Part shown: positions 1 through 12,988 of the stretch, piece by piece
Numbering within the stretch: the stretch's first letter is position 1
Layout of the letters: every line of letters begins with the position of its first letter
Assembly (NCBI GenBank): GCA_043816005.1
Contig: JBDRIM010000010.1
Span: forward strand, 1 to 13,771
Origin: Candidatus Micrarchaeota archaeon
GTDB lineage: Archaea > Micrarchaeota > Micrarchaeia > Anstonellales > Bilamarchaeaceae
Length of the DNA stretch: 13,771 nucleotides
Direction of reading: 5' to 3'
Translations under genes and position numbers: made by a program
The notes under the pieces: model-generated
What the model was told of the DNA's origin: nothing
Databases searched by the model: none
Seen by the model: the letters and a program-made list of their open reading frames with translations, nothing else

Positions 1-102
1 AGATTGGCCGATTACTATTGGCCCTGAACCTATTACTAGTACTTTACCAATTTGTTGGCAAATCTTGTTATTTGACAAGGCTTTTTTTGGTTTAATTGTC
101 AT
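1..102 (-). CDS. carB: Carbamoyl-phosphate synthase large subunit, N-terminal 34 codons (runs off the left edge; not in the ORF track)
   Basis: Manual translation from ATG at 102: MTIKPKKALSNNKICQQIGKVLVIGSGPIVIGQS. KVLxIGSGPIVIGQ is the CarB N-terminal signature. An AGGTG SD lies at 118-114, and the gene is downstream of carA on the same strand. Confidence 0.93.
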   Translation of the reverse strand, partial: MTIKPKKALSNNKICQQIGKVLVIGSGPIVIGQS

Positions 103-117
103 CAGATATACTACACC

Positions 118-465
118 TTAATGTTTGCAATTTTCATCATGTTTATGTTCATGTTTGTGTTCGTGTTTATGCTCGCCTTCGTGAGTGTGTTTGTGCTCTC
201 CTTCATCTGCTTTTTGGTCTCGGGACATTTTTTGCATAAAATCAAACATAAACCTTGATCCTTCAAAGAATGAGGTTTGGGCAAGTTCTTGCCGTGACAT
301 TTCTTTCAGTTTTTTCTTTTCGGCATTCCAGAGTTCCATAAATGCACGTGCTGTTACATCATTGATAAATTGCTGGAAACTTTCTGCTATTTTTTCAGGA
401 GGTATGCAAACATGTGTTTTATCTTTTACATTTTCAGGCAAAACACCTTCATCCCCTGATAACAT
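118..465 (-). CDS. Hypothetical protein with His-rich C-terminal tail; probably the 3' part of a frameshifted gene starting at 593
   Basis: 115-aa ORF ending ...GEHKHTHEGEHKHEHKHEHKHDENCKH. It has no obvious SD of its own, has an in-frame TGA directly upstream (468-466), and overlaps the 426-593 ORF by 40 nt. Confidence 0.7.
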   Translation of the reverse strand: MLSGDEGVLPENVKDKTHVCIPPEKIAESFQQFINDVTARAFMELWNAEKKKLKEMSRQELAQTSFFEGSRFMFDFMQKMSRDQKADEGEHKHTHEGEHKHEHKHEHKHDENCKH

Positions 466-593
466 TCATAGCAAGTGTGCTCTTTATCAGTTCCTTTAGT
501 TGGGTCTAATTGACATTGATCACAAAAAGTATCATTGCCACAAAAACTGCATTTTACGTTGTTTTCATTTTTTCCTTCTAGTTTTTCAGTCAT
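426..593 (-). CDS. Cys-rich putative zinc-finger segment, 55 aa (not in the ORF track); probably the 5' part of the same frameshifted gene
   Basis: MTEKLEGKNENNVKCSFCGNDTFCDQCQLDPTKGTDKEHTCYECYQGMKVFCLKM*, with CxxC, CxxC and HxCxxC. The ATG is 9 nt after the carA stop, preceded by AGTGA. Confidence 0.75.
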   Translation of the reverse strand: MTEKLEGKNENNVKCSFCGNDTFCDQCQLDPTKGTDKEHTCYECYQGMKVFCLKM

Positions 594-602
594 AACATCA
601 CT

Positions 603-1664
603 TCAAATCAATTTTACAAATTCATCGAATATGAACCTTGTATCATGAGGGCCAGGACATGCTTCAGGATGGTATTGTATTGAAATTATATCTTTATCAG
701 TACATGCCATACCCTCAACACTTTTATCATTCACATTTATTTGAGTAAGTTCAAAATTTTCAGGTATTTTGTTAACAGCAAATCCGTGATTCTGAGTTGT
801 AATGTAAGTTCTTTTATTTTTAATATTCAGAACAGCATGATTTGAACCACGATGACCGAATTTTAATTTTGTTGTATTTCCACCAAACGCATGTGCAAGA
901 AGTTGGTGACCGAGACAGATAGCTAGAATAGGACAAATTCCACCTAATTTTTTTATTACAGAATGTGCATTCGTCAGAATTGCAGGGTCTCCTGGACCAT
1001 TCGATAACAAAATACCATCTGGTTCGATTTTCTTTATATCATCTACAGTACTCGAACACGGAAGACGATGGACCTCACAACCACGTTCAACAAGTTGGCG
1101 AATGATATTCATTTTCACACCATAGTCAATAAGTGCAATTTTCTTTTTGTTTCCCTTACCAAATATTTCACATGATTTTGTTGATACTTTTGAAACAAAA
1201 TCAATTGCAGAATAATCAAATCCATGCATTTTTCCAATAAGTTTTTTTACATCAAGTTCTTCATCTGATGTTGCAAGGATTGCAGGCATTACACCTTTAT
1301 CACGAATATGACGGACTAGGAAACGTGTATCTATACCATAAAGACCTGGTATTTTGTATTCTTTGAGAAACGAATCAATATTTTTTGTTGAGTCACGATG
1401 TTGATAATCATGACTCAGTTCACGAATTACAAAACCATTTGGTTGTATTCTATCACTTTCCTGATCGTTTTTGTTGATTCCATAATTGCCGATTAGTGGA
1501 TATGTCATGAGGAGAATTTGACCACCATAACTAGGATCGGTTAACGACTCTTGATAACCCATCATAGACGTGTTAAAGACTAGTTCACCTAGCATTTCGG
1601 TTTTTGCACCAAAACCTGATCCGTGGATCACAGTGCCGTCTTTCAAAGCTAAAACTGCTTTCAT
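603..1664 (-). CDS. carA: Carbamoyl-phosphate synthase small (glutaminase) subunit
   Basis: Motifs GELVFNTSMMGYQESLTDPSY, LSNGPGDP, ICLGHQ (catalytic Cys), TQNHGF and QYHPE. Start moved from GTG 1676 to ATG 1664, because GGTGA at 1677-1673 fits as the SD and the argF stop is at 1668-1666. Confidence 0.97.
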   Translation of the reverse strand: MKAVLALKDGTVIHGSGFGAKTEMLGELVFNTSMMGYQESLTDPSYGGQILLMTYPLIGNYGINKNDQESDRIQPNGFVIRELSHDYQHRDSTKNIDSFLKEYKIPGLYGIDTRFLVRHIRDKGVMPAILATSDEELDVKKLIGKMHGFDYSAIDFVSKVSTKSCEIFGKGNKKKIALIDYGVKMNIIRQLVERGCEVHRLPCSSTVDDIKKIEPDGILLSNGPGDPAILTNAHSVIKKLGGICPILAICLGHQLLAHAFGGNTTKLKFGHRGSNHAVLNIKNKRTYITTQNHGFAVNKIPENFELTQINVNDKSVEGMACTDKDIISIQYHPEACPGPHDTRFIFDEFVKLI

Positions 1665-1665
1665 T

Positions 1666-2634
1666 TCATTTTTCACCTAACAATTTTATCAGCAGAGCCA
1701 TTTGTGCCCACATACGATTTTCTGCTTGATCAAATACTAATGATTTTGGACCTCTGAGACCATATTCGTCAATCTCATAGTCAATGTGGGCAGGCATATC
1801 ATGCATAGAGTGTGCTTGCGATCCGGCAATATCAAGAGTTTTTTTATTTAGTTGATAAGGTAACAATGCTTTTTCTCGCCTCTCTTTTTCTTGAGCAAAT
1901 TTCGGATCACTGAAAAATTCCATATTAACCCAAGTATCAGTGTAAAGAATATCTGCACCAGAAACTGCTTTTTCAAGATTTGATTCTTCGTGATAATTTG
2001 GCTGTGCGCATAGCCATTTTAATTGTTCTTCATCAAGACTATTTGGATCGCGTTCTGGTGTGCATAATGTAAAATTTGCACCGGTTCGTACTGCTGCTAG
2101 TGAAAGAGAATTACTCACATTATTTGCAATTCCAAGATAGGTGATTTTGATGTCTTTGGTTTTGTTGAATTTTTCTTTTACTGTCATCATATCAGCTAAA
2201 GCTTGGCAAGGATGATATTTCTCACAGAGCCCATTGATCACAGGAACTCTCGAGGTTTTGGTCATTTCCATTACCGTTGCATTTTTGAGTGGTCTGACCA
2301 TTATTGCATCTACATAACGAGAGATAACTTTGGCCTCATCTTGGACTCCCCCCATGGCAAGAAGCTTTGCTTCTTGACTGTCGCGAACCTCAGTTCGCAA
2401 CATAGCAAGTTGGGTGGTTCTCCAATCAACATAAATTGCATGACCACCTAATTTGGTCATTCCAGTTTCAAAAGACAACCTTGTACGTGTAGATGTTTTC
2501 TGAAAAATCATTGCAAGAGTTTTGTGACTAAGAGTGTTTTCAAATTTTGTCGGATTCTTCTTTATTTCTAATCCCAAATCGATTACTGATTCAATCCATT
2601 TCCCATCGTAATCTTTCAATGCTACAACATGCAT
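1666..2634 (-). CDS. argF: Ornithine carbamoyltransferase (ATCase/OTCase family) with a 16-aa insertion
   Basis: Motifs FQKTSTRTRLSFE (carbamoyl-phosphate site), INGL, HPCQALAD, YTDTW, HDMPA (variant of HCLP) and FDQAENR. It lies next to carA/carB. Confidence 0.9.
   Translation of the reverse strand: MHVVALKDYDGKWIESVIDLGLEIKKNPTKFENTLSHKTLAMIFQKTSTRTRLSFETGMTKLGGHAIYVDWRTTQLAMLRTEVRDSQEAKLLAMGGVQDEAKVISRYVDAIMVRPLKNATVMEMTKTSRVPVINGLCEKYHPCQALADMMTVKEKFNKTKDIKITYLGIANNVSNSLSLAAVRTGANFTLCTPERDPNSLDEEQLKWLCAQPNYHEESNLEKAVSGADILYTDTWVNMEFFSDPKFAQEKERREKALLPYQLNKKTLDIAGSQAHSMHDMPAHIDYEIDEYGLRGPKSLVFDQAENRMWAQMALLIKLLGEK
2353..2409. repeat. In-frame double-hairpin insert in argF flanked by a 9-nt imperfect direct repeat
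   Basis: CATGGCAAG (2353-2361) and CATAGCAAG (2401-2409), period 48 nt. Hairpins: CAAGAAGC-TTT-GCTTCTTG (2358-2376) and GCGAAC-CTCA-GTTCGC (2383-2398). Confidence 0.85.
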
Positions 2635-2685
2635 ACTCTCGCCTCTCTAAATTCTAAGAACTAGGAGATTTTATCTCAGTGCTAA

Positions 2686-2693
2686 TTTATAAA
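2686..2693 (-). promoter_or_regulatory. Putative TATA box for the argF-carA-carB operon
   Basis: TTTATAAA about 52 nt upstream of the argF ATG; a GAGG SD-like sequence precedes the ATG. Confidence 0.55.
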
Positions 2694-2718
2694 GTTATTG
2701 AAATTTTTGGAACAGAAG

Positions 2719-3411
2719 TTAGGTGTATACGAATAAATTTTTAAGGAAAATAGTTGGTTCGTCAAAAGAATCATGTGGAAGAGACATAAGAACTTGTAAT
2801 GGGTCGCGTCCGGTTTTTTCTTCTATTGCACGCATGAGAAGATATCCATTAACATAAATTGGACGTTTTTCTATAGTATCTAGAACATTCAGGTCTGGAT
2901 ACAATCTTTGAGCAACTTTCTCTCCGTAATAGGTTGCAAGACCCTCATAGATAGCAAGTCCGAATGATCCAGGAATTTGCTCTGCATCGTCAGTAAGTAA
3001 ATGAGTTAATTCGTGTGCAAGAAAATAATCTAATTCTTTTGCTCTTGAAAGAACAGACGAACTGGAAATAAGGAGTATAACATTCTCACCAGTTACAGCA
3101 TAACCCGCCATTGGTCTGAACTCAGAACTTAGTATACCAGCTAAACCTCTTGCTGCAAAAAGAAATGGTGCTGCAAATGGAGTCAATGCTCTTGACAAAA
3201 CATCATCAGAAAATGAATCAGGCTTAGGGAAAAGTGCTTTTTTAGTTGGATACCATACGTTCGCAAGAAAACTTGATACAAATCTAGTATGTACGCGTAT
3301 GGTGATGTCTCCATTTATACGTCTGCCTAGAGCTTCCTCACACAGTGGTTTAATTACTTTTAATCTTTCTGAAGCTAGTTTTCTTACTTCTGAGCGTCTT
3401 AATGTTCTCAC
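2719..3411 (-). CDS. Putative zinc metallopeptidase (HEXXH plus downstream E, gluzincin-like)
   Basis: LAHELTH followed by IYEGLATY and a later YVNGY. The GTG start is about 25 nt downstream of TTTTATAAA (3444-3436), suggesting a leaderless transcript. Confidence 0.7.
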   Translation of the reverse strand: MRTLRRSEVRKLASERLKVIKPLCEEALGRRINGDITIRVHTRFVSSFLANVWYPTKKALFPKPDSFSDDVLSRALTPFAAPFLFAARGLAGILSSEFRPMAGYAVTGENVILLISSSSVLSRAKELDYFLAHELTHLLTDDAEQIPGSFGLAIYEGLATYYGEKVAQRLYPDLNVLDTIEKRPIYVNGYLLMRAIEEKTGRDPLQVLMSLPHDSFDEPTIFLKNLFVYT

Positions 3412-3484
3412 AATATAATGTATGTGGCATTTAATTTATAAAATATGGTTTTTGATGTAAGTAAAAATTAATATTTAATTGGTC

Positions 3485-4705
3485 TTAGGATTTCTTGTGA
3501 TCATCAATAATTTTTGTGGCTTCATCGTGTGCTTGTTGAAGTGGAATTTGACCGAACCTATGGCCTTCAAAATCAGCCCTAACTTGCTCTGCAAGTGGTC
3601 TGTGACTTAAAGCATATTGAAAATAACTTAACGTCTGACTTAATGGAACTAGGAGTACTTTAGCTGCATTTTCAACAGTTGCACTCATTGCTCTTGTTGC
3701 AAGTTCAACACCATTAACAGTTTCCCTTACGCCAAATAATGCGGCTTTCCTTGCTGAGACATAAAGTTGATCAAAACCTTCAAGTCGAAAATTGTTCATA
3801 AGTCCTACGACTAAGTCTAATGCCTGTTGTTTTTGCATTTCTCTAGAAACCCTCCTTATTGGATTTGATTCTATCTCAGCTGGGTCTGCTGGTCTAAAAG
3901 CCATATTTAGCATGTATGGGACACCGTCAGCAAAAGTACGGCCACCTACAACCCTACCTTCGTTTAAAGGTGGTTGCTTCCAAAATGGAATATGAGTTCC
4001 ATCTGGCATGACACAAATTATACTTGATCCGCCACTTGCCTCGTGAATTCTAAGTCTTCGAGCAGTATATTCTAATTTTGATGGATCGCCTGATTCCACA
4101 TATTCAGTTGATTGTCCTCTAAATTCTGCCTCAAAAACAGTACCTACTGCTTTGGCACCAAGATGTTCTTCCAAAACAGTGTGGCGTGCTGCGTACATAA
4201 GGCCACCAATCCCCATAGTTTGGAAATCTACAGGTGTACCAAAAGTCATTTGAGAATAAACTGCATCTGCAACAGCACCATACTGCCAATAAACCATTTT
4301 TGGTCTTGCTAGAACCGATCCCTGACTGTATGCTATAACACCCAATTCATCATGAATTATTGCAATTGCCATGAATGGATGATCTTCAAAAATCTCCCTC
4401 CTAGTATTCATATCTTCAAGTCTTTGTCTGATCAATGATGTTGGTTCTGCTTCGTTTGGATTGGGAAAGAAATGGGTGTATATACCTGGTTTAACTCCAG
4501 TTGGTTCTGATGCATCAAAACCAATACCATGAGCAGCAACTTCAGAACTAGGATCACGAATTTCTACTACTCTTAATACTTGATAAAGTGGTTTGTGAGT
4601 TATTGGATCTGGTGCTTGTAATTTTTCAGCTAATCGTCTACCAATGTAATGTTCACGAACTTGGATAGGTCTATTTTCTTGTTTAGTTATTGGTCCTGCT
4701 GCTAT
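3485..4705 (-). CDS. Hypothetical protein with a divergent GNAT acetyltransferase-like region; probable ATA start (about 406 aa)
   Basis: The frame stays open 90 codons upstream of the track's TTG (4435) to an ATA placed 4 nt after GGTGA. GNAT-like pieces: IYTHFFP..E, YGAV, FQTMGIGGLM, VFEAE, RRLRIHEASG. The fold call is inference. Confidence 0.65.
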   Translation of the reverse strand: MAAGPITKQENRPIQVREHYIGRRLAEKLQAPDPITHKPLYQVLRVVEIRDPSSEVAAHGIGFDASEPTGVKPGIYTHFFPNPNEAEPTSLIRQRLEDMNTRREIFEDHPFMAIAIIHDELGVIAYSQGSVLARPKMVYWQYGAVADAVYSQMTFGTPVDFQTMGIGGLMYAARHTVLEEHLGAKAVGTVFEAEFRGQSTEYVESGDPSKLEYTARRLRIHEASGGSSIICVMPDGTHIPFWKQPPLNEGRVVGGRTFADGVPYMLNMAFRPADPAEIESNPIRRVSREMQKQQALDLVVGLMNNFRLEGFDQLYVSARKAALFGVRETVNGVELATRAMSATVENAAKVLLVPLSQTLSYFQYALSHRPLAEQVRADFEGHRFGQIPLQQAHDEATKIIDDHKKS

Positions 4706-4736
4706 GTGATCACCAATTACTATTGCTCATAATAGG

Positions 4737-4744
4737 TATATAAA
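4737..4744 (-). promoter_or_regulatory. Putative TATA box for the 3485-4705 gene
   Basis: TTTATATA on the minus strand, about 23 nt upstream of the GGTGA SD at 4714-4710. Confidence 0.55.
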
Positions 4745-4875
4745 CGTTATTATCCATTAATTGCCACTGAAAGTATTTATAAAAGAATGGCCAAACGTAG
4801 GACAATCGTCTGGTTTAAATACCTTTGTAAGGTAATATCTAATTCGCAACTTTTGCTTATTTAGAGGTATATTAC

Positions 4876-5181
4876 ATGACTAAAGTTAGAATAAAATTAA
4901 GTGGTGAGGACCCTGCTGCCCTCGATAATGTAGTTGAACAGATAAAGAATTTATCTTCAACATTAAGTATGAGATTTATTGGTCCTGTCAGGCTACCAAG
5001 AAGAAAAATGGAGATTGCCTGTAGAAGAACTCCTTGTGGAGATGGTACTGATACTTACGAACATTGGGAAAAAAGAGTTCACAAAAGACTTTGTGATGTC
5101 GAAGGCGATGAAAAATATATCAAACAAATTCTGAGAATTAAAGTTCCAACCAATGTTTTTGTTAAAATCTCACTTGGTTAG
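4876..5181 (+). CDS. rps10: 30S ribosomal protein uS10 (archaeal type)
   Basis: Motifs RIKL, GPVRLP, RRTPCGDGTDTYEHWE.RVHKRL. GAGGT SD just upstream; TATA-like TTTAAATA at 4814-4821. Confidence 0.95.
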   Translation: MTKVRIKLSGEDPAALDNVVEQIKNLSSTLSMRFIGPVRLPRRKMEIACRRTPCGDGTDTYEHWEKRVHKRLCDVEGDEKYIKQILRIKVPTNVFVKISLG

Positions 5182-5184
5182 TTA

Positions 5185-5781
5185 TTAATCAAGATGAGAT
5201 AATATTCTTATAGCTGCATTAGAAACCTCACTGCTCAGATCTCCCCTCAATTGTATAATAGCCTGTTTGAGGGATGGGTGAACCCCAGTATTATCAACAA
5301 CTACCCGACTCTCGATTTGATTAAGTGCAAGTCTTTTTTCATTTTCACCGCCGTTAAGTAGAAGTGCTTCCAGAAAACCATACCCAATAGTCTTTACATG
5401 ATTATTATTTGAATAAAGTAAAGAACCAAAAATACCAATTATACCAAGACGTTCATAATCCGTGCCACGTAAAGCATAATATCGCAGATCAACAACCAAA
5501 GTATGGAGAAACGGATCATTATTTTCACGTTCAAATATGCCTGTGAAAAAATTTTTCAGACGAACTCTAAGATCATAATTAGAACTATTAAAGATTGCAA
5601 TAAAATTCCTTAGAAGATCTGGTTGTTGTTTAAGTTTATCAAAAAGTGCTAAATCTTGATGAACGTTTAACGCAGATGCAATCTGGCGTTTCGCCCACCA
5701 TGCAACTAATGGATTTTGATGTTTGAATCCTCGCTCTTGCTCATGTGCAACATGACCAAGTACTGCGTGTCTGATACTCAC
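5185..5781 (-). CDS. Hypothetical alpha-helical protein, possibly HEAT/ARM-like
   Basis: 198-aa ORF with a GTG start after a GGTGGGGGG SD-like run. Amphipathic helical segments, ending in DLSSEVSNAAIRIL. Confidence 0.55.
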   Translation of the reverse strand: MSIRHAVLGHVAHEQERGFKHQNPLVAWWAKRQIASALNVHQDLALFDKLKQQPDLLRNFIAIFNSSNYDLRVRLKNFFTGIFERENNDPFLHTLVVDLRYYALRGTDYERLGIIGIFGSLLYSNNNHVKTIGYGFLEALLLNGGENEKRLALNQIESRVVVDNTGVHPSLKQAIIQLRGDLSSEVSNAAIRILSHLD

Positions 5782-5930
5782 AGGATCCCCCCACCATAAT
5801 ATGGTGGATAGACGGGTTTTTGTGGATTGTGGTTTTGTGTAAAGACGAAAGATATTTAAGCCGAACTATGAAATAATCAATCCACGAATTATTACATTAG
5901 ATGAATTTTTTTAAAATATGAGGTAATGTC

Positions 5931-6042
5931 ATGGGTGCTAAACCAAGAAAATGGAAATCGATCCGAACAAGTTCGGTTCTTTCCATTTTCTCTGACGTTT
6001 TTAAGAGGTATGAATATGGGTGCTAAACCAAGAAAATGGAAA
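5931..6042 (+). repeat. Exact 27-nt direct repeat of the first 9 codons of eL41, with an inverted copy between the two repeats
   Basis: ATGGGTGCTAAACCAAGAAAATGGAAA at 5931-5957 and 6016-6042. TTTCCATTTTCT (5980-5991) is the reverse complement of AGAAAATGGAAA. Confidence 0.95.
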
Positions 6043-6129
6043 AAGAAAAACAGAATGCGCTGGAATTGGGTAACGAAAAAGCGCAAACGACTTAGAAAAA
6101 AAATTAAACGAAGAGTAGGTGAACTCTAG
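6016..6129 (+). CDS. rpl41e: Ribosomal protein eL41 (L41e), 37 aa
   Basis: MGAKPRKWKKKNRMRWNWVTKKRKRLRKKIKRRVGEL matches the archaeal L41e pattern PRKWKKKxRMRWxWxKKRxRRL. GAGGTA SD at 6005-6010. Confidence 0.88.
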   Translation: MGAKPRKWKKKNRMRWNWVTKKRKRLRKKIKRRVGEL

Positions 6130-6517
6130 AACATTGATGCGGTCCTTCAACATGGTGCTCCGCAGGAGCACCTTCTCTAATTCTTTGAAATGTTGAAGCA
6201 TCGTAAGTAGATACTGGAATATAAACCAAATAAACATAGCGAGTTGGATTAAAACTTGCTGTTCTTTCATCTCTTGTCGGTTCTTGACCATCAGTAACAA
6301 AAATTAGAGAACACTTTTTTTCTGTTTCAAGTTCTCTTACTCTGGATGATGCAACTCTAGGATTTATTGCAACTAAACGAGTTACAAAAATTCCAAGAGT
6401 TTCTTCTCTGTCGCCCAGAGTACACACTAAAAGATCTACAGGTTTACTAACTTTTCCATTTGATTTTGTGGCATGCACGATAGCATAATTACTGTGTTGA
6501 ATTGTTCGAGGATTCAT
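6104..6517 (-). CDS. Hypothetical protein
   Basis: 137-aa ORF with ATG after a GGTGG SD. No recognisable motif. Its 3' end overlaps eL41 convergently by 26 nt. Confidence 0.5.
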   Translation of the reverse strand: MNPRTIQHSNYAIVHATKSNGKVSKPVDLLVCTLGDREETLGIFVTRLVAINPRVASSRVRELETEKKCSLIFVTDGQEPTRDERTASFNPTRYVYLVYIPVSTYDASTFQRIREGAPAEHHVEGPHQCSRVHLLFV

Positions 6518-6644
6518 GTATCCACCATTTATCTGATATTACCATACATAAAAAATATAAACTGATGTTTCGTTTTTTTAATTTGTTAAACTGTATTAGA
6601 CACAACTTTAAATATTGTTGGATAAAATAATATATTGTGTTGTC

Positions 6645-7466
6645 ATGACTAATATGAGATTTCAAAGCTTAGCTAGATCCATCCCAACAAAAGCGCAGAC
6701 TGCAGCACGAGCAGTACAAAGACTTGAGAATTGGGGAACTTATCTTATGGACTGTGTTGGCCTTGCAGGTTCAGATAGATTAGTATACACCTTAAGAGAT
6801 GGAACTAAATTTGCAGTTAGAGCAGGAACTGTTGATAGGTATGTTCTCAACGAAGTTGTTTTTAGACGTGGATATTTCCCCGATGGTTTTTCCATAGAAA
6901 AAAATGATACCGTAGTTGAGATTGGAGGCCACATTGGAATATTTACTGTTTTAGCTGCAAGAATGGCACCACAGGGAAAAGTTTATACTTTTGAACCAAA
7001 TCCAGATAACTTTCAGATGCTTGGTACAAATCTTGCCATGAACCGAGTTGGTAATGTAATTGCAAGGCAGGAAGCAGTATCCGATACCAGTGGTTCAGTA
7101 TCTTTATACCTTGATCATAGAAACACTGGCGGGCATTCGATACACCAAAGTGATAACACTGGAACTGGAATAACTGTGAGAACTACTACTTTGGCTGACA
7201 TAATTAGTCAGAATAGACTGGAAAAAATTGATTTCCTGAAAATGGATTGTGAAGGAGCAGAATACGAAATATTCAGAAGTGTGCCATTGGAAGTTTTAGC
7301 AATGGTAAGAAAAATAGCAATGGAATGTCATGATCAGGGTGAAGGAAGAAATAGTAGATTGATGGTAGGTTTACTCCGTAGACATGGATTTGATGTTGTT
7401 GTTAAAACCGAACGATTCGATGATAAATTATCGATGATTTATGCAACGCGGACCTATGATAACTAA
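6645..7466 (+). CDS. FkbM-family SAM-dependent methyltransferase
   Basis: Motifs VEIGGHIGIFT, VYTFEPNP and IDFLKMDCEGAE. Start placed at ATG 6645, about 30 nt after TTTAAATA at 6608-6615; the track's TTG start overlaps that box. Confidence 0.9.
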   Translation: MTNMRFQSLARSIPTKAQTAARAVQRLENWGTYLMDCVGLAGSDRLVYTLRDGTKFAVRAGTVDRYVLNEVVFRRGYFPDGFSIEKNDTVVEIGGHIGIFTVLAARMAPQGKVYTFEPNPDNFQMLGTNLAMNRVGNVIARQEAVSDTSGSVSLYLDHRNTGGHSIHQSDNTGTGITVRTTTLADIISQNRLEKIDFLKMDCEGAEYEIFRSVPLEVLAMVRKIAMECHDQGEGRNSRLMVGLLRRHGFDVVVKTERFDDKLSMIYATRTYDN

Positions 7467-7517
7467 AAAAGCACAGAGAATAGGTTTTTAAACTCGTCTC
7501 ATAAAAGAATAGTTCTA

Positions 7518-7544
7518 CCCGTAGTACCACTTCAAGTGGGAGGG
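7518..7544 (+). promoter_or_regulatory. Putative uL1-binding autoregulatory leader (rRNA mimic) overlapping the rpl1 SD
   Basis: CCC-GTAGTA-CCAC-TTCAA-GTGG-GA-GGG: two helices around an asymmetric loop. It contains the GUGGGAGG and UACCAC strands known from the 23S rRNA L1 site. TATA-like TTTTAAA at 7486-7492. Confidence 0.75.
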
Positions 7545-7551
7545 ATTTATT

Positions 7552-8184
7552 ATGGATAAGAAAAAACTTATAGAAGCTATTAGTAAGATTCTCGAAGAAA
7601 AAGGAAAGAGAAAATTCAAACAGAGTGTTGAGATAATCATCAATATGAGAGGGATTGACTTCTCAAAAAGTGAAAACAGACTCAACATAGATATTGTTCT
7701 GCCAAAAGGTAAAGGCGGCAAGGAACTTAAATCAGCAGTTTTTGCCGAAGGTACCATGGCTGATGAAGCCAAAAAAGCAGGTGCAGACTTGGTAATAACA
7801 CCAGATGCAATTCCAGCATATGCAGAATCATCAAAAGTAAGTGATCTTGCAGATAATTATTTCATGTTATCTCAACCCAACCTTATGGGTGCAGTTGCAA
7901 AATCACTTGGTCAATATTTAGGTAAACGAGGTAAACTTCCAAAACCAATAATAGGGAATATTTCTGATCTAATAAAAAGATCGAAAAACAGTGTCAGAAT
8001 TGTTTCGAAAGGTAAACACCTTCCAGTTGCACAAGCACTTATAGGCACTGAGATAATGGATACTGATGACCTTGTTGACAATGCTGAAGCAGTATACGAC
8101 GCATTAAAAGGCAAGGTAAATGAAGGCAACATCAAGTCAGTTTATGTTAAATTGACTATGAGTAAGCCAGTTAGAGTTGTTTAG
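7552..8184 (+). CDS. rpl1: 50S ribosomal protein uL1
   Basis: Motifs KRKFKQSVEIIINMRGIDF, LGQYLGKRGKLPKP and NIKSVYVKLTMSKP. First gene of the L1-L10-L12 cluster. Confidence 0.97.
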   Translation: MDKKKLIEAISKILEEKGKRKFKQSVEIIINMRGIDFSKSENRLNIDIVLPKGKGGKELKSAVFAEGTMADEAKKAGADLVITPDAIPAYAESSKVSDLADNYFMLSQPNLMGAVAKSLGQYLGKRGKLPKPIIGNISDLIKRSKNSVRIVSKGKHLPVAQALIGTEIMDTDDLVDNAEAVYDALKGKVNEGNIKSVYVKLTMSKPVRVV

Positions 8185-8194
8185 GGTGGATTAA

Positions 8195-9052
8195 ATGACA
8201 TACAAAACTGACGTTAACAAAAAAGAGATAAAGAAAAAAGCAGAGCAAGTTCAAAAAGCTATTGCAGACATGAAAAAATATAAAACAGTTGCAATGCTTG
8301 ATTTGAGAAAGCTACCTGATTCACTCTTCCAATCATTAAGAAAGAAGATTAGAGAAAACGGAGGCCTGGTTTTAGTTCTTAAAAAACCAGTCGTAAGTAG
8401 AGTGCTTGCAGCAAACAAAAAACTTGCTGAGAAAGTTGGCGAATGTAACAAACCAATTGCTCTTATTTACACAAACCAATCTGCTTATGAGTTAAATTCC
8501 TTCTTCAAACAAAACAAAAAGACGAGAGCAGCAAAGTCAGGTGATATTGCAGTTGTTGACATTATTGTTCCAGAAGGAGAAACTGATCTTCCAGCTGGTC
8601 CAGCTTTATCTGAACTTAAGGCAGCGGGTCTTAATGCACAGATAAGAGCAGGTAAAATTGCAATAGTAAAAGAGAGCACAGTTGCCAAGGCAGGGGAGAA
8701 AATAACAGATGCAAAGGTCAAAGCACTCCAAACACTTAGTGTTCGTCCATTTGAGGTCATGGCCAATTTAATTTTTGGATTCGATGGAGAGTACATTTAC
8801 TCAAGACAACTTTTGGATATCGGAGATAGCATAAATGCAGATGTTGCAAATGGATTATCACAGGCATTGAATGTTTCATTGAATGTTAATTATCCAACCA
8901 AACAGAACATTAATTTACTGCTTGGAAGTGCCGTAAAGCAATCGATAAATTTTTCGCTAAATGGTAATTTATATTCATCAAACTCAATCGGGCAGCTTCT
9001 CTCCTCTGCAATAAGGCAGGGGATGGCTTGTGAGAGTTTGAATAAGAAATAA
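8195..9052 (+). CDS. rplP0: 50S ribosomal protein uL10 (acidic P0)
   Basis: AKSGDIA..DIIVPEGETDLPAGP (archaeal/eukaryal domain II) and LSLNVNYPT. Lies between uL1 and L12, with a GGTGG SD. Confidence 0.95.
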   Translation: MTYKTDVNKKEIKKKAEQVQKAIADMKKYKTVAMLDLRKLPDSLFQSLRKKIRENGGLVLVLKKPVVSRVLAANKKLAEKVGECNKPIALIYTNQSAYELNSFFKQNKKTRAAKSGDIAVVDIIVPEGETDLPAGPALSELKAAGLNAQIRAGKIAIVKESTVAKAGEKITDAKVKALQTLSVRPFEVMANLIFGFDGEYIYSRQLLDIGDSINADVANGLSQALNVSLNVNYPTKQNINLLLGSAVKQSINFSLNGNLYSSNSIGQLLSSAIRQGMACESLNKK

Positions 9053-9062
9053 AAGGAGATTA

Positions 9063-9084
9063 AAAAAGAACCTTGGTTCTTTTT
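9063..9084. repeat. Perfect 10-bp inverted repeat in the P0-L12 spacer
   Basis: AAAAAGAACC-TT-GGTTCTTTTT, ending 2 nt before the GAGGTG SD of L12. Confidence 0.85.
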
Positions 9085-9097
9085 ATGAGGTGTAAAA

Positions 9098-9403
9098 ATG
9101 AAAGTAGATCCATATTTGCACGCTGTGCTTGTTTTGCATGGCGCTGGGAAAGAAGTTAGTAAGGAAAGCATTTTAGCTGTTGTAAAGGCAAGTGGTGCTG
9201 AAGTCGATGAGGCTCATGCAAAAGTACTTGCTGAAGCAGTTAAAGACGTAAACTTCGAAGACCTTCTAAAACAATCAGCAATGGTTGCAGCAGCTCCAGT
9301 TGCAGCAGCTCCAGCAGCTGAAGGAAAGAAAGAAGAAAAGAAGGAAGATGAAGGAAAGAAAGAAGAACAAGCAGCAGAAGGTTTGGCTAACTTGTTCGGG
9401 TAA
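9098..9403 (+). CDS. rpl12: 50S ribosomal stalk protein P1/L12 (archaeal)
   Basis: YLHAVLVLH.AGKEV N-terminus, Ala/Pro hinge, charged stretch and C-terminal GLANLFG. Confidence 0.97.
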   Translation: MKVDPYLHAVLVLHGAGKEVSKESILAVVKASGAEVDEAHAKVLAEAVKDVNFEDLLKQSAMVAAAPVAAAPAAEGKKEEKKEDEGKKEEQAAEGLANLFG

Positions 9404-9453
9404 GCGTAGCGAACCCGGACAATCTTGAACTTGTTCAAGGCTTGTTCGGTTAA
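9391..9453 (+). repeat. Double hairpin bracketed by a duplication of the rpl12 3' end
   Basis: CTTGTTCGGGTAA (9391-9403) and CTTGTTCGGTTAA (9441-9453), period 50 nt. Hairpins: TTGTTCGGGT/ACCCGGACAA (9392-9422) and CTTGAAC-TT-GTTCAAG (9424-9439). Confidence 0.85.
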
Positions 9454-9477
9454 TTTTCTTTTTTAATTTTTTATTTT
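9454..9477 (+). terminator. Oligo-T tracts, probable terminator of the L1-P0-L12 operon
   Basis: TTTTCTTTTTTAATTTTTTATTTT just after the last gene and its hairpins. Confidence 0.6.
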
Positions 9478-9543
9478 AATTGTTATAACTAGTTTTGAAA
9501 AAAATAAGATAAGAGTTATAAGGTACATAGAAGAATAATTCTT

Positions 9544-9852
9544 ATGATAAAAAGGCCGAAAATCAGCAAAGAGGAACTGATAGCAGACCTGATATACATT
9601 TTAATCGGTGCAATTGTTGCATTCATTGCAATATTCATATTCGACATACACTGGAGTTTCTATCCTGGAGAAACAGTATTGCCACCAAGCAGACATGTTT
9701 TCCAAACTCATGATCCGTATTATTTTGGTATCCCAATTGGTGCAATTGTTGGCTTTTTCATATTGAAACTACTTTCATTTGCCTTTATGGAAGATGAAAT
9801 AGCACATGAAAAGATGGTAAAAACCAAAAAATCAGTGAAAAAAAAGCAATGA
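9544..9852 (+). CDS. Small membrane protein, two predicted TM helices, unknown function
   Basis: Hydrophobic LIYILIGAIVAFIAIFIF and FGIPIGAIVGFFILKLLSFAF segments with a basic tail. TTATAA lies about 25 nt upstream (leaderless-type spacing). Confidence 0.7.
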   Translation: MIKRPKISKEELIADLIYILIGAIVAFIAIFIFDIHWSFYPGETVLPPSRHVFQTHDPYYFGIPIGAIVGFFILKLLSFAFMEDEIAHEKMVKTKKSVKKKQ

Positions 9853-9885
9853 AACCTATTTATTTCTAGCTTCTGTTAGTAAAGT

Positions 9886-10818
9886 ATGCACAGGGATATA
9901 AAAAAAATTATAGGTGATATAAAATCCCTAAAGATACAAGGCGCAAGGAATGTTGCTAAAGCTGCCGTAAATGGGCTTGCTATAGCAGCAAAAAAATCAA
10001 AAACAAAAACAGCTCAAGCATTCAGTCATGAAATGCGTGATGTAGCTAATGCACTTGCCACTAGCAGACCAACAGAACCGATGATGAGAAATATGCTTGA
10101 TGAGGGACTGTATTTCATAGAGCAAGCAATTAAATCAAAGAAAACCACCAAATCATCATTAGTAAAACTATTAGTAAATCACGAAAAACAAATGATCAAC
10201 AAAATGGAATTGGATGCTAAGCGCTTGGCACAATATGGTGCAAAACTTATCCCTGACGATGCACTCGTATTAACTTATTGTCATTCTTCCACTACAACAA
10301 GAATTTTAATTGAAGCTAAAAGAATGCGTAAAAAATTTTCAGTGGTTGCATTTGAAACACGACCAAGATTTCAAGGGAGAATAACTGCAGCAGAACTTGC
10401 AAAGGCTGGTATAGATGTTACTCTTACAGTAGATGGTGCTATGTATCTATTTATGAAAAAAGCAGATATTGTTATCGTAGGAGCTGATTCAATAACATCA
10501 CGAGGAGATTTGATAAATAAAATTGGCACTGCAACAATTGCGCATATAGCAAAAATGAATGACGTCTCGTTTTACAGTGCAGCTGAATTATCAAAATATA
10601 GTGCAATGACAATTTTTGGCACGCGTGAAAAAATAGAGGAGAGAAACTCAAAAGAAGTTTGGGAGAAACCACCAAAGGGAGTGACAATAAGAAATCCTGC
10701 ATTCGAAGCAACCGCAGCAAAATACATAAATGGTTATATAACTGAGATAGGAGTAATACCACCACAATCATTCTTCACAATGGCAACTAATAAATTAGGT
10801 ATAAAATTATATGAATAA
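9886..10818 (+). CDS. e2b2: Ribose-1,5-bisphosphate isomerase (eIF2B-like family)
   Basis: Motifs IQGA, RPTEP, LTYCHS (catalytic Cys), ETRPRFQG, VGADSI (catalytic Asp), NKIGT and RNPAFE. Directly upstream of AMP phosphorylase. Confidence 0.9.
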   Translation: MHRDIKKIIGDIKSLKIQGARNVAKAAVNGLAIAAKKSKTKTAQAFSHEMRDVANALATSRPTEPMMRNMLDEGLYFIEQAIKSKKTTKSSLVKLLVNHEKQMINKMELDAKRLAQYGAKLIPDDALVLTYCHSSTTTRILIEAKRMRKKFSVVAFETRPRFQGRITAAELAKAGIDVTLTVDGAMYLFMKKADIVIVGADSITSRGDLINKIGTATIAHIAKMNDVSFYSAAELSKYSAMTIFGTREKIEERNSKEVWEKPPKGVTIRNPAFEATAAKYINGYITEIGVIPPQSFFTMATNKLGIKLYE

Positions 10819-10830
10819 ATAGGTGAAAAT

Positions 10831-12393
10831 ATGGTAGACTACGTTGAATCTGAACAAAAAAAAGTAGATGTCTGGAAATTCAAAAAATATGCATGCAAAG
10901 TGAAACCAATAGATATTTTCACTGGTAAAAACATAATTGTCCTAAATAAAGAAGAAGCACAGGAGCATGATATTTATTCAGGATATAGGACTGAGTTGAA
11001 ACATGATGGAACAAGTATTATTGCAATAGTAGATGTAAGTGATGAGATAGTTGAACGAGGCGAAGTTGGAATTTTCCGTGATTTAACAAGCTGGCATAAA
11101 CTCAAGAAAGGGGAAATAGTAGAAATAGTTCATATGAACAGACCAGAATCTATAACATATATCAAAAAGAAATTAGATAAAGGTGTACTCAACACTAAAG
11201 AAATTAGAACGATAGTAAAGGAAATAATGCAGGATAGATTAAGCGAAATAGAAACATCTGCATGGATAGCAGCTGCATACATAAATGGATTCTCAGATGA
11301 TGAAATTATATCGTTGGCAGAAGCAACTGTTGATTCTGGCGATCAGTTGGATCTGGGTAAGCATCCCGTTCTGGACAAACATTGTATAGGTGGCGTAGCA
11401 GGAAATAGAACGACTATGTTGGTAGTTCCCATAATTGCAGCTCTGGGTATGTACATGCCAAAAACATCATCACGATCAATAACCTCAGCTGCAGGAACAG
11501 CTGATACAATGGAAGTTTTGGCTGATGTTACGTTTAATATGGAAGAACTTCGTTCAATGGTATTGAAAGCAAAAGGTGCAATTGTTTGGGGTGGAGGAAT
11601 GAAACTTGCCCCAGTCGATGACAAGCTCATAAGAGTCAGACATCCGTTAAGTCTTGATCCAGAAGGTATGCTTTTAGCAAGTATCCTTGGTAAGAAAAAA
11701 AGTGTTGGTGCAGAATACGCTGTAATTGATATTCCTGTTGGGCGTGGTGTTAAAGTACCTTACATGGAACGTGGAAACGAACTTGCAAAACATTTCATAA
11801 GTGTTGGAGATAAACTTGGAATAAAGATAGAAGCTTTGATAACAGATGGTGCAGAGCCGATTGGAAATGGGATTGGACCGGCACTTGAATGTATAGATGT
11901 GTTAGAAGTACTTGAGGGTAAAGGTCCAGATGATTTAAAGCATAAAAGCCTTTTACTAACAGGCAAATTGCTTGAGTTATGTGGGAAAGTGGATAAAGGC
12001 AAAGGATATGGAATTGCAGAGAATACACTTATGAATGGTAAAGCAATGGCTAAATTCAGAGAGATAATTGAATTGCAAGGTGGTGATCCAAAAATAAAAT
12101 CATCTGATATTACACTTGGATCAGCTAGCCACACCGTAACTGCAGAAACATCCGGAAGTATCTTTCATATAGACAATAAAATAATGGCAAAAATAGCAAG
12201 AATTGCTGGTTCTCCGCGTGACAAGGGTGCTGGCGTATTCCTCCATAGGCTTCGGGGTGATAGAGTAGAAGTTGGAGACAAACTTTATACTATACATGCC
12301 GAAAGCGGAACAACATTGGATTTTGCCTTAAAAGCAATCAAAGACCTTGAACCAATAGAGATGAGGAAAATGTTGTTAGGAAGTCTGCAGTAA
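10831..12393 (+). CDS. deoA: AMP/NMP phosphorylase (thymidine phosphorylase family, archaeal long form)
   Basis: Motifs DKHCIGGVAGNRTT, PKTSSRSITSAAGTADTMEVL, PLSLDP and NGIGPALE, with an extra N-terminal domain. GGTGA SD 4 nt before the ATG. Confidence 0.95.
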   Translation: MVDYVESEQKKVDVWKFKKYACKVKPIDIFTGKNIIVLNKEEAQEHDIYSGYRTELKHDGTSIIAIVDVSDEIVERGEVGIFRDLTSWHKLKKGEIVEIVHMNRPESITYIKKKLDKGVLNTKEIRTIVKEIMQDRLSEIETSAWIAAAYINGFSDDEIISLAEATVDSGDQLDLGKHPVLDKHCIGGVAGNRTTMLVVPIIAALGMYMPKTSSRSITSAAGTADTMEVLADVTFNMEELRSMVLKAKGAIVWGGGMKLAPVDDKLIRVRHPLSLDPEGMLLASILGKKKSVGAEYAVIDIPVGRGVKVPYMERGNELAKHFISVGDKLGIKIEALITDGAEPIGNGIGPALECIDVLEVLEGKGPDDLKHKSLLLTGKLLELCGKVDKGKGYGIAENTLMNGKAMAKFREIIELQGGDPKIKSSDITLGSASHTVTAETSGSIFHIDNKIMAKIARIAGSPRDKGAGVFLHRLRGDRVEVGDKLYTIHAESGTTLDFALKAIKDLEPIEMRKMLLGSLQ

Positions 12394-12771
12394 TCGTGCA
12401 TGCTCGATCATAATGCATTTATTCATCACAATGTTCAGCCCTGCTTTTCTTGCAAGTTCTGCTGCAGGTATTACACTTAACTGCATCCAGATTGTTTTTG
12501 CCTTAGCTTGAATAGCTTCTTCAACTATAGGCATAACATCTTTGCTTTTTCTAAAAATATCAACAATATCAATTTTTTCTTTAATTTTATTAAGAGAAGT
12601 ATATGACTTTAGACCACACCATTCTTCTATATTCGGATTAACCGGAAAAATTTTGTAACCATGTTTCAAAAGATAGCTCGCAACACAAAAACTTGGACGA
12701 TCTGGATTATCTGAAAGACCAACAATGGCAATTGTTTTTGATTCTTGTAGAATAAATTTCAGATTAACCAT
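12376..12771 (-). CDS. CoA-binding protein (YccU-like)
   Basis: Motifs TIAIVGLSDNPDRPS, PVNP, IDIVDIFR, IWMQL and VMNKC. Start set at ATG 12771 (MVNLK...) because the track's extension runs through the TATA box. Confidence 0.9.
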   Translation of the reverse strand: MVNLKFILQESKTIAIVGLSDNPDRPSFCVASYLLKHGYKIFPVNPNIEEWCGLKSYTSLNKIKEKIDIVDIFRKSKDVMPIVEEAIQAKAKTIWMQLSVIPAAELARKAGLNIVMNKCIMIEHARLLQTS

Positions 12772-12790
12772 GGTAAAACCAAAACGCCTA

Positions 12791-12800
12791 AATTTATAAG
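12791..12800. promoter_or_regulatory. TATA element in the 55-nt divergent gap between the CoA-binding gene and tRNA-Tyr
   Basis: AATTTATAAG reads TTTATAAG on + and TTATAAAT on -, at promoter-like distance from both starts. Confidence 0.65.
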
Positions 12801-12826
12801 AACTTCCCTGCACGTTTTCATTCTAT

Positions 12827-12988
12827 CCCGTCGTAGCTCAAAGCCTTGAAAGGGTTCTTTCAAGATTTACCCGCCAAGGCGTGTAACGGTAGAGCGGTCG
12901 GCTGTAGTTTTGATTTACTCGATTTTGACGAGTTATATCTACGCCAGTAGATACCGACAGGTTGCTTGTTCAAATCAGGCCGACGGGA
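12827..12988 (+). tRNA. trnY: tRNA-Tyr(GTA) with two introns (12842-12886 at position 15/16; 12908-12952 at 37/38); CCA not encoded
   Basis: Acceptor CCCGTCG/CGACGGG with discriminator A (C1-G72, A73: archaeal Tyr identity). D-stem GCTC/GAGC, anticodon stem GTCGG/CCGAC, loop CT-GTA-G|A, variable loop AGGTT, T-arm GCTTG-TTCAAAT-CAGGC. Confidence 0.93.

Follow-up and report, generated by a model that had tools for sequence, protein, structure and literature searches.

A hairpin-bearing tRNA intron family in Micrarchaeota, with probable ectopic copies in carB and at the end of rpl12

The stretch of DNA analyzed here (the window, 13,771 nucleotides [nt]) is contig C10 of a Candidatus Micrarchaeota archaeon assembly, GCA_043816005.1, which we call G000; other G-numbers denote compared genomes, and G023 is the closest relative. 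It holds three copies of a short hairpin motif. This motif is very probably the conserved 5′ core of a Micrarchaeota element of about 40 to 50 nt, which at copy 3 is a tRNA intron and at copies 1 and 2, in carB and at the end of rpl12, is an ectopic insertion of the same unit. The core of such an element would read A|AGCCUUG, then a variable perfect stem-loop, then CAAGAUUUG...

Three lineage-specific inserts in one window

The pattern AATCTTG-N(8-12)-CAAGGCTT matches the window exactly at 61-83 (+), 9421-9443 (+), and 12841-12867 (-), the three places where a sequence-only reading had put the hairpin. A scan with a wider spacer, AATCTTG-N(4-24)-CAAGGCTT, gave a mean of 0.01 matches over 200 dinucleotide shuffles against the 3 observed, and none of the 200 shuffles reached 3. 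That reading had also described 15 identical outer bases, a T.G pair with a bulged C, and an inner part that differs but stays self-complementary. The identity of the outer bases is borne out in all three copies. The T.G pair and the bulged C are as described in the antisense, and in the tRNA sense the "T.G" becomes a C.A mismatch; inner self-complementarity is clear at site 3 (AAAG/CTTT), weak at site 2, and hardly present at site 1. On the other strand the motif reads AAGCCUUG-stem-loop-CAAGAUU, or, in DNA letters and in the tRNA sense, AAGCCTTG..CAAGATT. The features concerned are as follows.

1 to 102, minus strand: carB 5′ end, with its ATG at 100-102; the gene continues past the contig edge (translation MTIKPKK...VLVIGSGPIVIGQ; carA adjoining)
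44 to 82, minus strand: 39-nt in-frame insert in the carB N-terminus, from comparison with G023; adds ALSNNKICQQIGK; copy 1 at 61-83
9098 to 9403, plus strand: rpl12, acidic ribosomal stalk protein P1 (Pfam Ribosomal_60s, E of 4e-11)
9391 to 9399, plus strand: left copy of a 9-nt direct repeat, CTTGTTCGG, resembling a target duplication
9400 to 9449, minus strand: insert of 50 nt where rpl12 has its stop codon, with the element in antisense to the gene; lacking in G023; copy 2 at 9421-9443
9441 to 9449, plus strand: right copy of the same 9-nt repeat, CTTGTTCGG; the ancestral stop TTAA comes directly after it
12827 to 12988, plus strand: tRNA-Tyr(GTA) gene with two 45-nt introns, from ARAGORN after in silico intron removal and from genus orthologues
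12842 to 12886, plus strand: 45-nt D-loop intron, at position 15/16 if the A-run is assigned by the family register; no counterpart in G023
12908 to 12952, plus strand: canonical 45-nt anticodon-loop (37/38) intron outside the motif family, from in silico removal and orthologues

Copy 3 (12841-12867) is the start of the D-loop intron, beginning with the first intron bases; its sense sequence is AAGCCUUG-AAAGGGUUCUUU-CAAGAUU. As it stands, the tRNA-Tyr gene was missed by ARAGORN and by Rfam in both gathering and E-value modes. Once 12842-12886 and 12908-12952 are removed in silico, ARAGORN calls a 72-nt tRNA-Tyr(gta). The D-loop boundaries were set in this way because 13 of the 18 tRNA-Tyr orthologues recovered in the genus show an uninterrupted D-arm, GCTC-AACGGTA-GAGC. 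Three of those 18 loci carry a family intron, two have other D-loop introns, and 13 have none; the G023 gene lacks a D-loop intron. The earlier placement of the motif in a D-loop intron thus stands as to location, and the tRNA lies on the plus strand, so the motif as first written is antisense to it. No second tRNA-Tyr was found in the G000 assembly, which is 86% complete. A cloverleaf is restored by removal at copy 3 only, copies 1 and 2 lying outside tRNA genes.

Copy 1 does lie within carB, as first read, at codons 7-20 on the minus strand. The N-terminus is MVTLKKPKK-VLVIGSGP in G023 and MTIKPKK-ALSNNKICQQIGK-VLVIGSGP in G000. The insert starts with AGCC and ends with AA, as do the family tRNA introns, and its removal recreates the G023 sequence in frame. 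It is absent from six of the seven other genomes having the region (G023 and five others); at the same carB site, G049 carries a related in-frame insert, 51 nt long, whose perfect hairpin is a different one. When G000 and G049 are compared, four differences, three of them non-synonymous, fall in the 27 nt that form the 3′ part of the insert and nine, all synonymous, in the adjoining 39 nt of carB; because of this pattern, the inserted peptide looks unconstrained. A 16-mer, CAAGATTTGCCAACAA, is common to site 1 and the D-loop intron of tRNA-Val in G053. Being in frame and without a stop codon, the insert needs nothing beyond read-through.

Copy 2 belongs to an insert that falls exactly at the rpl12 stop codon. 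The insert-free gene of G023 ends in ...GCTAACTTGTTTGG|TTAAtttt (also given as ...AACTTGTTTGG|TTAAtttt). In G000 the insert itself supplies a new stop (9401-9403), and the protein end GLANLFG-stop is preserved. None of the 22 other rpl12 3′ ends in the genus has the insert.

The relation between the three sites was recovered independently with a covariance model, R1, built on 18 tRNA introns, none of which came from G000. With filters off, its top three matches in the window were the three sites, at 37 bits (E of 2.7e-8) for site 3, 20.8 bits (E of 7e-4) for site 1, and 18.6 bits (E of 2.8e-3) for site 2; the next-best match scored 13.3 bits. The insertion comparison and R1 together bear out the proposal that the tRNA intron is related to the other two hairpins, all three belonging to one family. 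The whole-genome search with R1 added a fourth, diverged full-length copy at C41:54560-54605 (21.9 bits), which reads AAACCATG..CATGATT and has a tail resembling that of site 1.

The rest of the G000 assembly (85 contigs, 1.26 Mb, 36.5% GC, 5.5% estimated contamination) has no further exact copy of the motif at its 86% completeness. Allowing at most one mismatch gave six additional matches, which were unconvincing; at most two gave 146, mostly random; and at most three with inner pairing gave 71, against 34 in a reversed control. The relaxed scans of G000 produced no convincing extra copies. The sequence-only reading had proposed a dispersed repeat and had itself named a lack of further genomic copies as telling against it. 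Formally, that is the outcome in G000 for the exact motif, with 3 exact copies and 1 diverged copy; what survives of the proposal is that the three hairpins are copies of one insertion-prone element. Four DNA sequencing runs gave short contigs only, at a depth of about 2 to 4; site 1 is covered intact by one of these, and the short contigs showed neither an indel nor a joint at any of the three sites.

Several observations concern the surroundings of the inserts. The 23 bases at the end of contig C59 match window positions 1-23 exactly, which places the continuation of carB on C59; the assembly break is 38 nt from motif copy 1, and coverage in the public runs is about 2-4x. By Pfam, carA occupies 603-1676 on the minus strand. 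Between carA and carB lies a 115-amino-acid (aa) open reading frame (ORF) at 118-465 on the minus strand, with a histidine-rich C-terminus (HEGEHKHEHKHEHKHDENCKH), conserved in G023 and G049 and without a Pfam match. Two candidate signals at site 1 were also considered. A T-run after the site was rejected as a terminator, the run being the complement of carB Lys codons, and an exon-intron helix, CCAA/UUGG, was set aside as a splice signal; the tail forms its own GCCAA..UUGG hairpin, as it does in the C41 copy. Other ribosomal genes in the window by Pfam are those for S10, L1, and L10/P0. Window positions 160, 9200, and 12780 correspond to 36388, 49129, and 59169 on G023 contig C9, in the same gene order; the spacing from rpl12 to tRNA-Tyr is about 10 kb in G023 and 3.4 kb in the window, which implies a multi-kilobase indel in one of the two genomes.

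The intron family and its structure

In the genus (40 genomes), the pattern AAGCCWTG-N(4-24)-CAWGATT had 29 matches against 4 in the reversed control; by eye, 15 of the 29 are of the family type, with self-complementary interiors, and 14 are chance-like. The family members include D-loop introns of tRNA-Tyr (G000, G003, G006, and G053), tRNA-Phe (G022, G006, and G053), and tRNA-Val (G053), together with a T-loop intron in G010. Across the order (176 genomes), a stricter pattern had 45 matches, as opposed to 2 in the control; the 45 are spread over 32 genomes, most of which belong to the same family. Outside the genus, inspection by eye sorted these into 14 tRNA introns (10 T-loop, 3 D-loop, and 1 other), 5 hairpin-type matches that are non-tRNA or unresolved, and 10 that are chance-like. 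A scan of named genomes yielded four tRNA-intron matches among the 119 matches listed, the rest being mostly chance bacterial matches; the four come from records titled Micrarchaeota, Burarchaeum, or "archaeon." The D-loops of Tyr, Phe, and Val and many T-loops share AAGCCTTG..CAAGATTTG..(CAAGGC)..CAA. As is characteristic of transposed introns of the Thermoproteales type, related sequences are found in different tRNA species and at different positions, and their presence or absence varies between close relatives at an orthologous gene, that of tRNA-Tyr.

The 18-intron alignment gives the consensus A|AGCCUUG - perfect stem-loop - CAAGAUUUGNCNG(C)AAGGCNGNCAA|. In this alignment the hairpin originally noticed is 97% paired, and five of its eight pairs change on both sides. 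An alternative helix, GCCUUG with 3′ CAAGGC, is 92.5% paired and uses the same CUUG as the hairpin. One lineage has changed all three segments jointly, to GCCAUG, CAUGAUU, and CAUGGC. For T-loop precursors, the minimum-energy folds favor the outer helix and pair the 5′ arm of the hairpin with the AUUUGNCAG tail. At the RNA level, the conserved "irregular" outer bases would be accounted for by the position of AAGCC at the 5′ splice junction and by the ability of GCCUUG to pair with the 3′ CAAGGC.

Pairing across the junction was read by eye, between the four exon nt before the AAA bulge and the four intron nt before the terminal AA. It is 4/4 for Val (GUCG/UGAC), Phe (GCAU/GUGC), G144 (GUGU/ACGC), and tRNA-Tyr of G028 (GCUC/GAGC); CGAC likewise pairs 4/4 in two unrelated Val introns of G000. 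On these pairings, the exon-intron junction may be a relaxed bulge-helix-bulge.

A host-encoded splicing endonuclease is present in G000: EndA at C64:47933-48424 is a 391-aa ORF with two catalytic-domain stretches (PF01974) and an N-domain (PF02778), and a second EndA-like gene at C5:14421-14663 (PF01974) lies within a 333-aa open frame. The 391-aa EndA is the candidate enzyme for the family introns, and we infer that these are spliced in vivo. The element would reside mostly as a protein-spliced, non-canonical intron in the D-loop (at about 15/16) or T-loop (at about 59/60) of tRNAs. Only this tRNA-Tyr turned up in the assembly, and it would function only if the copy were cut out by a broad-specificity endonuclease of the genome. 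The carB copy would be an ectopic insertion, in frame in an unconserved N-terminal tail and tolerated through read-through or excision; it may likewise be excised from the mRNA, and, if so, it would be a protein-gene intron of the tRNA type in a DPANN archaeon. The rpl12 copy, ectopic and antisense at the very end of its gene, would be tolerated with a duplicated target that keeps the protein end intact.

Two further sets of sequences in G000 were noted beside the family. Two tRNA-Val genes, at C73:7221 and C78:3794, have D-loop introns of about 50 nt at the same position that belong to a different sequence family; both end in CGACAA, pairing with exon GUCG. A second family, of about 80 nt, has a covarying outer stem followed by TTGTCCTTG-hairpin-CAAGACAGT and, last, by another perfect hairpin. 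Its copies are all intergenic (C5:44697, C14:10065, C20:8077, C54:6187, C60:14513, and C60:37660 in G000), and the genus has 12 matches, in 5 of 40 genomes, against 0 in controls. Rfam had no match in the six TTGTCC-type loci of this family in G000. It shares a CCTTG..CAAGA hairpin core with the intron family.

Route of spread and alternative explanations

Of the 11 non-tRNA copies, three lie immediately between short direct repeats: site 2 (9 nt), a copy on contig C81 of G003 (9 nt), and a copy beside a tRNA 3′ end in G153 (7 nt). G003 has four non-tRNA copies, three of them in paralogous intergenic repeats. Compared with the paralogous C28 and C39, its C81 carries a 52-nt insert between 9-nt repeats, CTTGATGCA, where C28 has a single site, CTGGATGCA; the C81 element lies in the orientation opposite to that on C28 and C39, 12 nt from its place there. 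A search for the empty site of the G153 copy was swamped by tRNA matches. Since the element occurs in both orientations and with target duplications of 7 to 9 nt, we infer that it was inserted as DNA. A broader scheme, which we offer as a tentative one and would not yet prefer, is that introns of this family begin as small hairpin-bearing DNA insertions that land anywhere, in either orientation, with duplications of about 9 bp, and are kept as "introns" where the endonuclease can excise them.

Several observations weigh against reading the motif as the core of one intron-type unit that also inserts ectopically. Eight of the 11 non-tRNA copies have no flanking direct repeats, and the family tRNA introns show no target duplication beyond 2 to 4 A-rich bases. 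The sorting of copies into tRNA and non-tRNA was done by eye. On the whole-genome scale, the R1 E-values are only 0.066 for site 1 and 0.25 for site 2. Exon-intron pairing is 3/4 for tRNA-Tyr of G000 (GCUC/GUGU) and poor in the T-loop copies, and a canonical 3-4-3 bulge-helix-bulge was evident neither by eye nor in the minimum-energy folds. Finally, all three exact copies are on one 13.8-kb low-coverage contig of an assembly that is 86% complete with 5.5% contamination. Under random placement in 1.26 Mb, the chance of three copies on one such contig is about 1e-4, a post hoc calculation on an incomplete genome; the clustering on C10 hints at local spread of the element.

Of the competing explanations, the one that survives best is that mobility or exchange is confined to the hairpin module, CCTTG-stem-CAAGA, a small DNA repeat able to form a hairpin, which would invade existing scaffolds such as old introns and structured intergenic elements, so that the intron itself is not the mover. 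We consider this rather unlikely, though it accounts for several observations. The same core, sometimes with a near-identical interior, occurs in two scaffolds, as in the TTGTCC-type CCTTGAACGGCGAACCGTTCAAGA on C7 of G023 and the AAGCC-type CCTTGAACGGCGATCCGTTCAAGA on C81 of G003, and the second family contributes six G000 copies of TTGTCCTTG-hairpin-CAAGACAGT. The interior of the hairpin also varies from genome to genome where the sites are orthologous: in the tRNA-Tyr intron among G000, G003, G006, and G028, and in the carB insert between G000 and G049. However, the inserts at sites 1 and 2 comprise an AGCC start and a 17- to 28-nt tail besides the hairpin, and 16 nt of the site 1 tail are common to a tRNA-Val intron. 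The stems, moreover, are short and come in few variants (GAAC/GTTC and GAAAG/CTTTC), so near-identity may be convergence.

Spread at the RNA level seems improbable; on that route, an excised intron would enter a transcript by reverse splicing, and a reverse-transcribed copy would then recombine into the genome. In its favor, G000 encodes a group II intron-type reverse transcriptase/maturase at C41:53160-54304 (locus L271), although split into two overlapping ORFs, and the fourth copy of the element is nearby: it is intergenic, upstream of the reverse transcriptase and on the opposite strand, about 250 nt from the upstream ORF and about 730 nt from the ORF bearing RVT_1. The exact, intron-like boundaries of the site 1 unit would also fit. 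However, the reverse transcriptase seems to be disrupted, the one transcript evident at site 2 runs antisense to the element, the paralogous G003 sites hold the element in opposite orientations, and 9-nt direct repeats are unexpected from reverse splicing.

The sequence-only reading had favored recognition by an HUH (Y1) transposase, as for repetitive extragenic palindromes (REP) or IS200/IS605 ends, and this now appears very improbable. An irregular hairpin is indeed kept across copies, with a mismatch or bulge in the same place in every member. However, Y1_Tnp (PF01797) had 0 matches in the 86%-complete G000 genome and did match in 6 control genomes, and no TnpB-type protein was matched in G000. 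With only three exact copies, on one contig, and one diverged copy, the high copy number of such repeats is lacking. The 9-nt direct repeats at two insertions, which IS200/IS605-type insertion is not known to make, also speak against it, as does the position of the element, mostly within tRNA loops.

Other transposases were considered as well. G000 had no match to an IS256-type transposase (PF00872). The only transposase of the DDE_Tnp_1 type found in the assembly lies in an insertion sequence of about 890 bp at C50:~706-1595, with inverted ends of about 20 nt, GGCT(T/C)(A/T)GTAGAAAATCTTTT. A reading of the element as a miniature inverted-repeat transposable element mobilized by a DDE transposase found no support in this assembly, the ends of the C50 insertion sequence being unlike those of the element.

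Coincidence is scarcely credible, as is the idea that the three are unconnected local hairpins, for example terminators or regulatory stems: the motif was chosen post hoc and the T-run after site 1 mimics a terminator, but the shuffles, the lineage-specific insertion at all three sites, the recovery of those sites by R1, the Lys-codon origin of the T-run, and the mixed orientation relative to transcription all argue against it.

Relation to known systems

The closest parallel to the element proposed here, an intron-type unit with ectopic copies, is the "tRNA intron transposition" of Thermoproteales (Fujishima, Sugahara, Tomita & Kanai 2010, Mol Biol Evol), as cited in the available parts of PMC3239211, PMC4090602, PMC10714607, and bioRxiv 10.64898/2026.10.13.758758. 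There, too, related introns recur across tRNA isoacceptors and at non-canonical positions and are patchy among relatives. The present family differs in being found in Micrarchaeota and in belonging to another sequence family, in occurring also outside tRNA genes (in a coding sequence, at a gene 3′ end, and in intergenic DNA), and in offering filled and empty site comparisons together with 7- to 9-nt direct repeats. Full-text literature searches, which did not extend to supplements, returned no paper on the motif family, on ectopic copies in protein genes, or on target duplications for archaeal tRNA introns. The mechanism of tRNA intron transposition is stated to be unknown in the part of PMC4090602 available, and in the accessible text of a 2026 census of Asgard archaea, how introns arrive remains open (bioRxiv 10.64898/2026.10.13.758758).

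Within the same lineage, Candidatus Micrarchaeum acidiphilum (ARMAN-2) has introns at T-loop position 59/60 and at other non-canonical positions, with relaxed bulge-helix-bulge motifs, and a splicing endonuclease that is a three-unit, broad-specificity epsilon2 enzyme (PMC3239211, in its available part). The conserved AAGCCUUG..CAAGAUU family and its ectopic copies are not described in that part of PMC3239211. By its sequence, the 391-aa EndA of G000, with two catalytic-domain matches, appears to resemble the epsilon2 enzyme.

The cbf5 mRNA intron of Crenarchaeota is of the bulge-helix-bulge type. More generally, "archaeal introns in mRNA genes" are mentioned in the available text of PMC11782384. 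The carB copy is similar in being an intron-type unit inside a protein gene, with the frame restored if it is excised, and it differs in that its splicing is only hypothetical and the insert is in frame and stop-free. With REP elements and their associated tyrosine transposases (RAYT) and with IS200/IS605, the element has in common that it is dispersed in the genome and forms a short imperfect hairpin whose irregularities are conserved. It differs from them in its low copy number, its location mainly in tRNA loops, the direct repeats at some inserts, and the lack of a detected HUH gene in G000.

One intron-type unit is newly inserted at three places in the window: in a tRNA, in a coding sequence, and at a gene end with a 9-nt duplication. 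For every one of them, a sister genome shows the clean empty site. With three such filled and empty sites, the route of arrival, DNA insertion versus reverse splicing, becomes testable, and the same sites allow one to ask whether the endonuclease also trims mRNAs. Ectopic copies in or beside protein genes are a clue to how such introns spread, and the finding extends the known transposition of tRNA introns with ectopic copies and target-duplication footprints.

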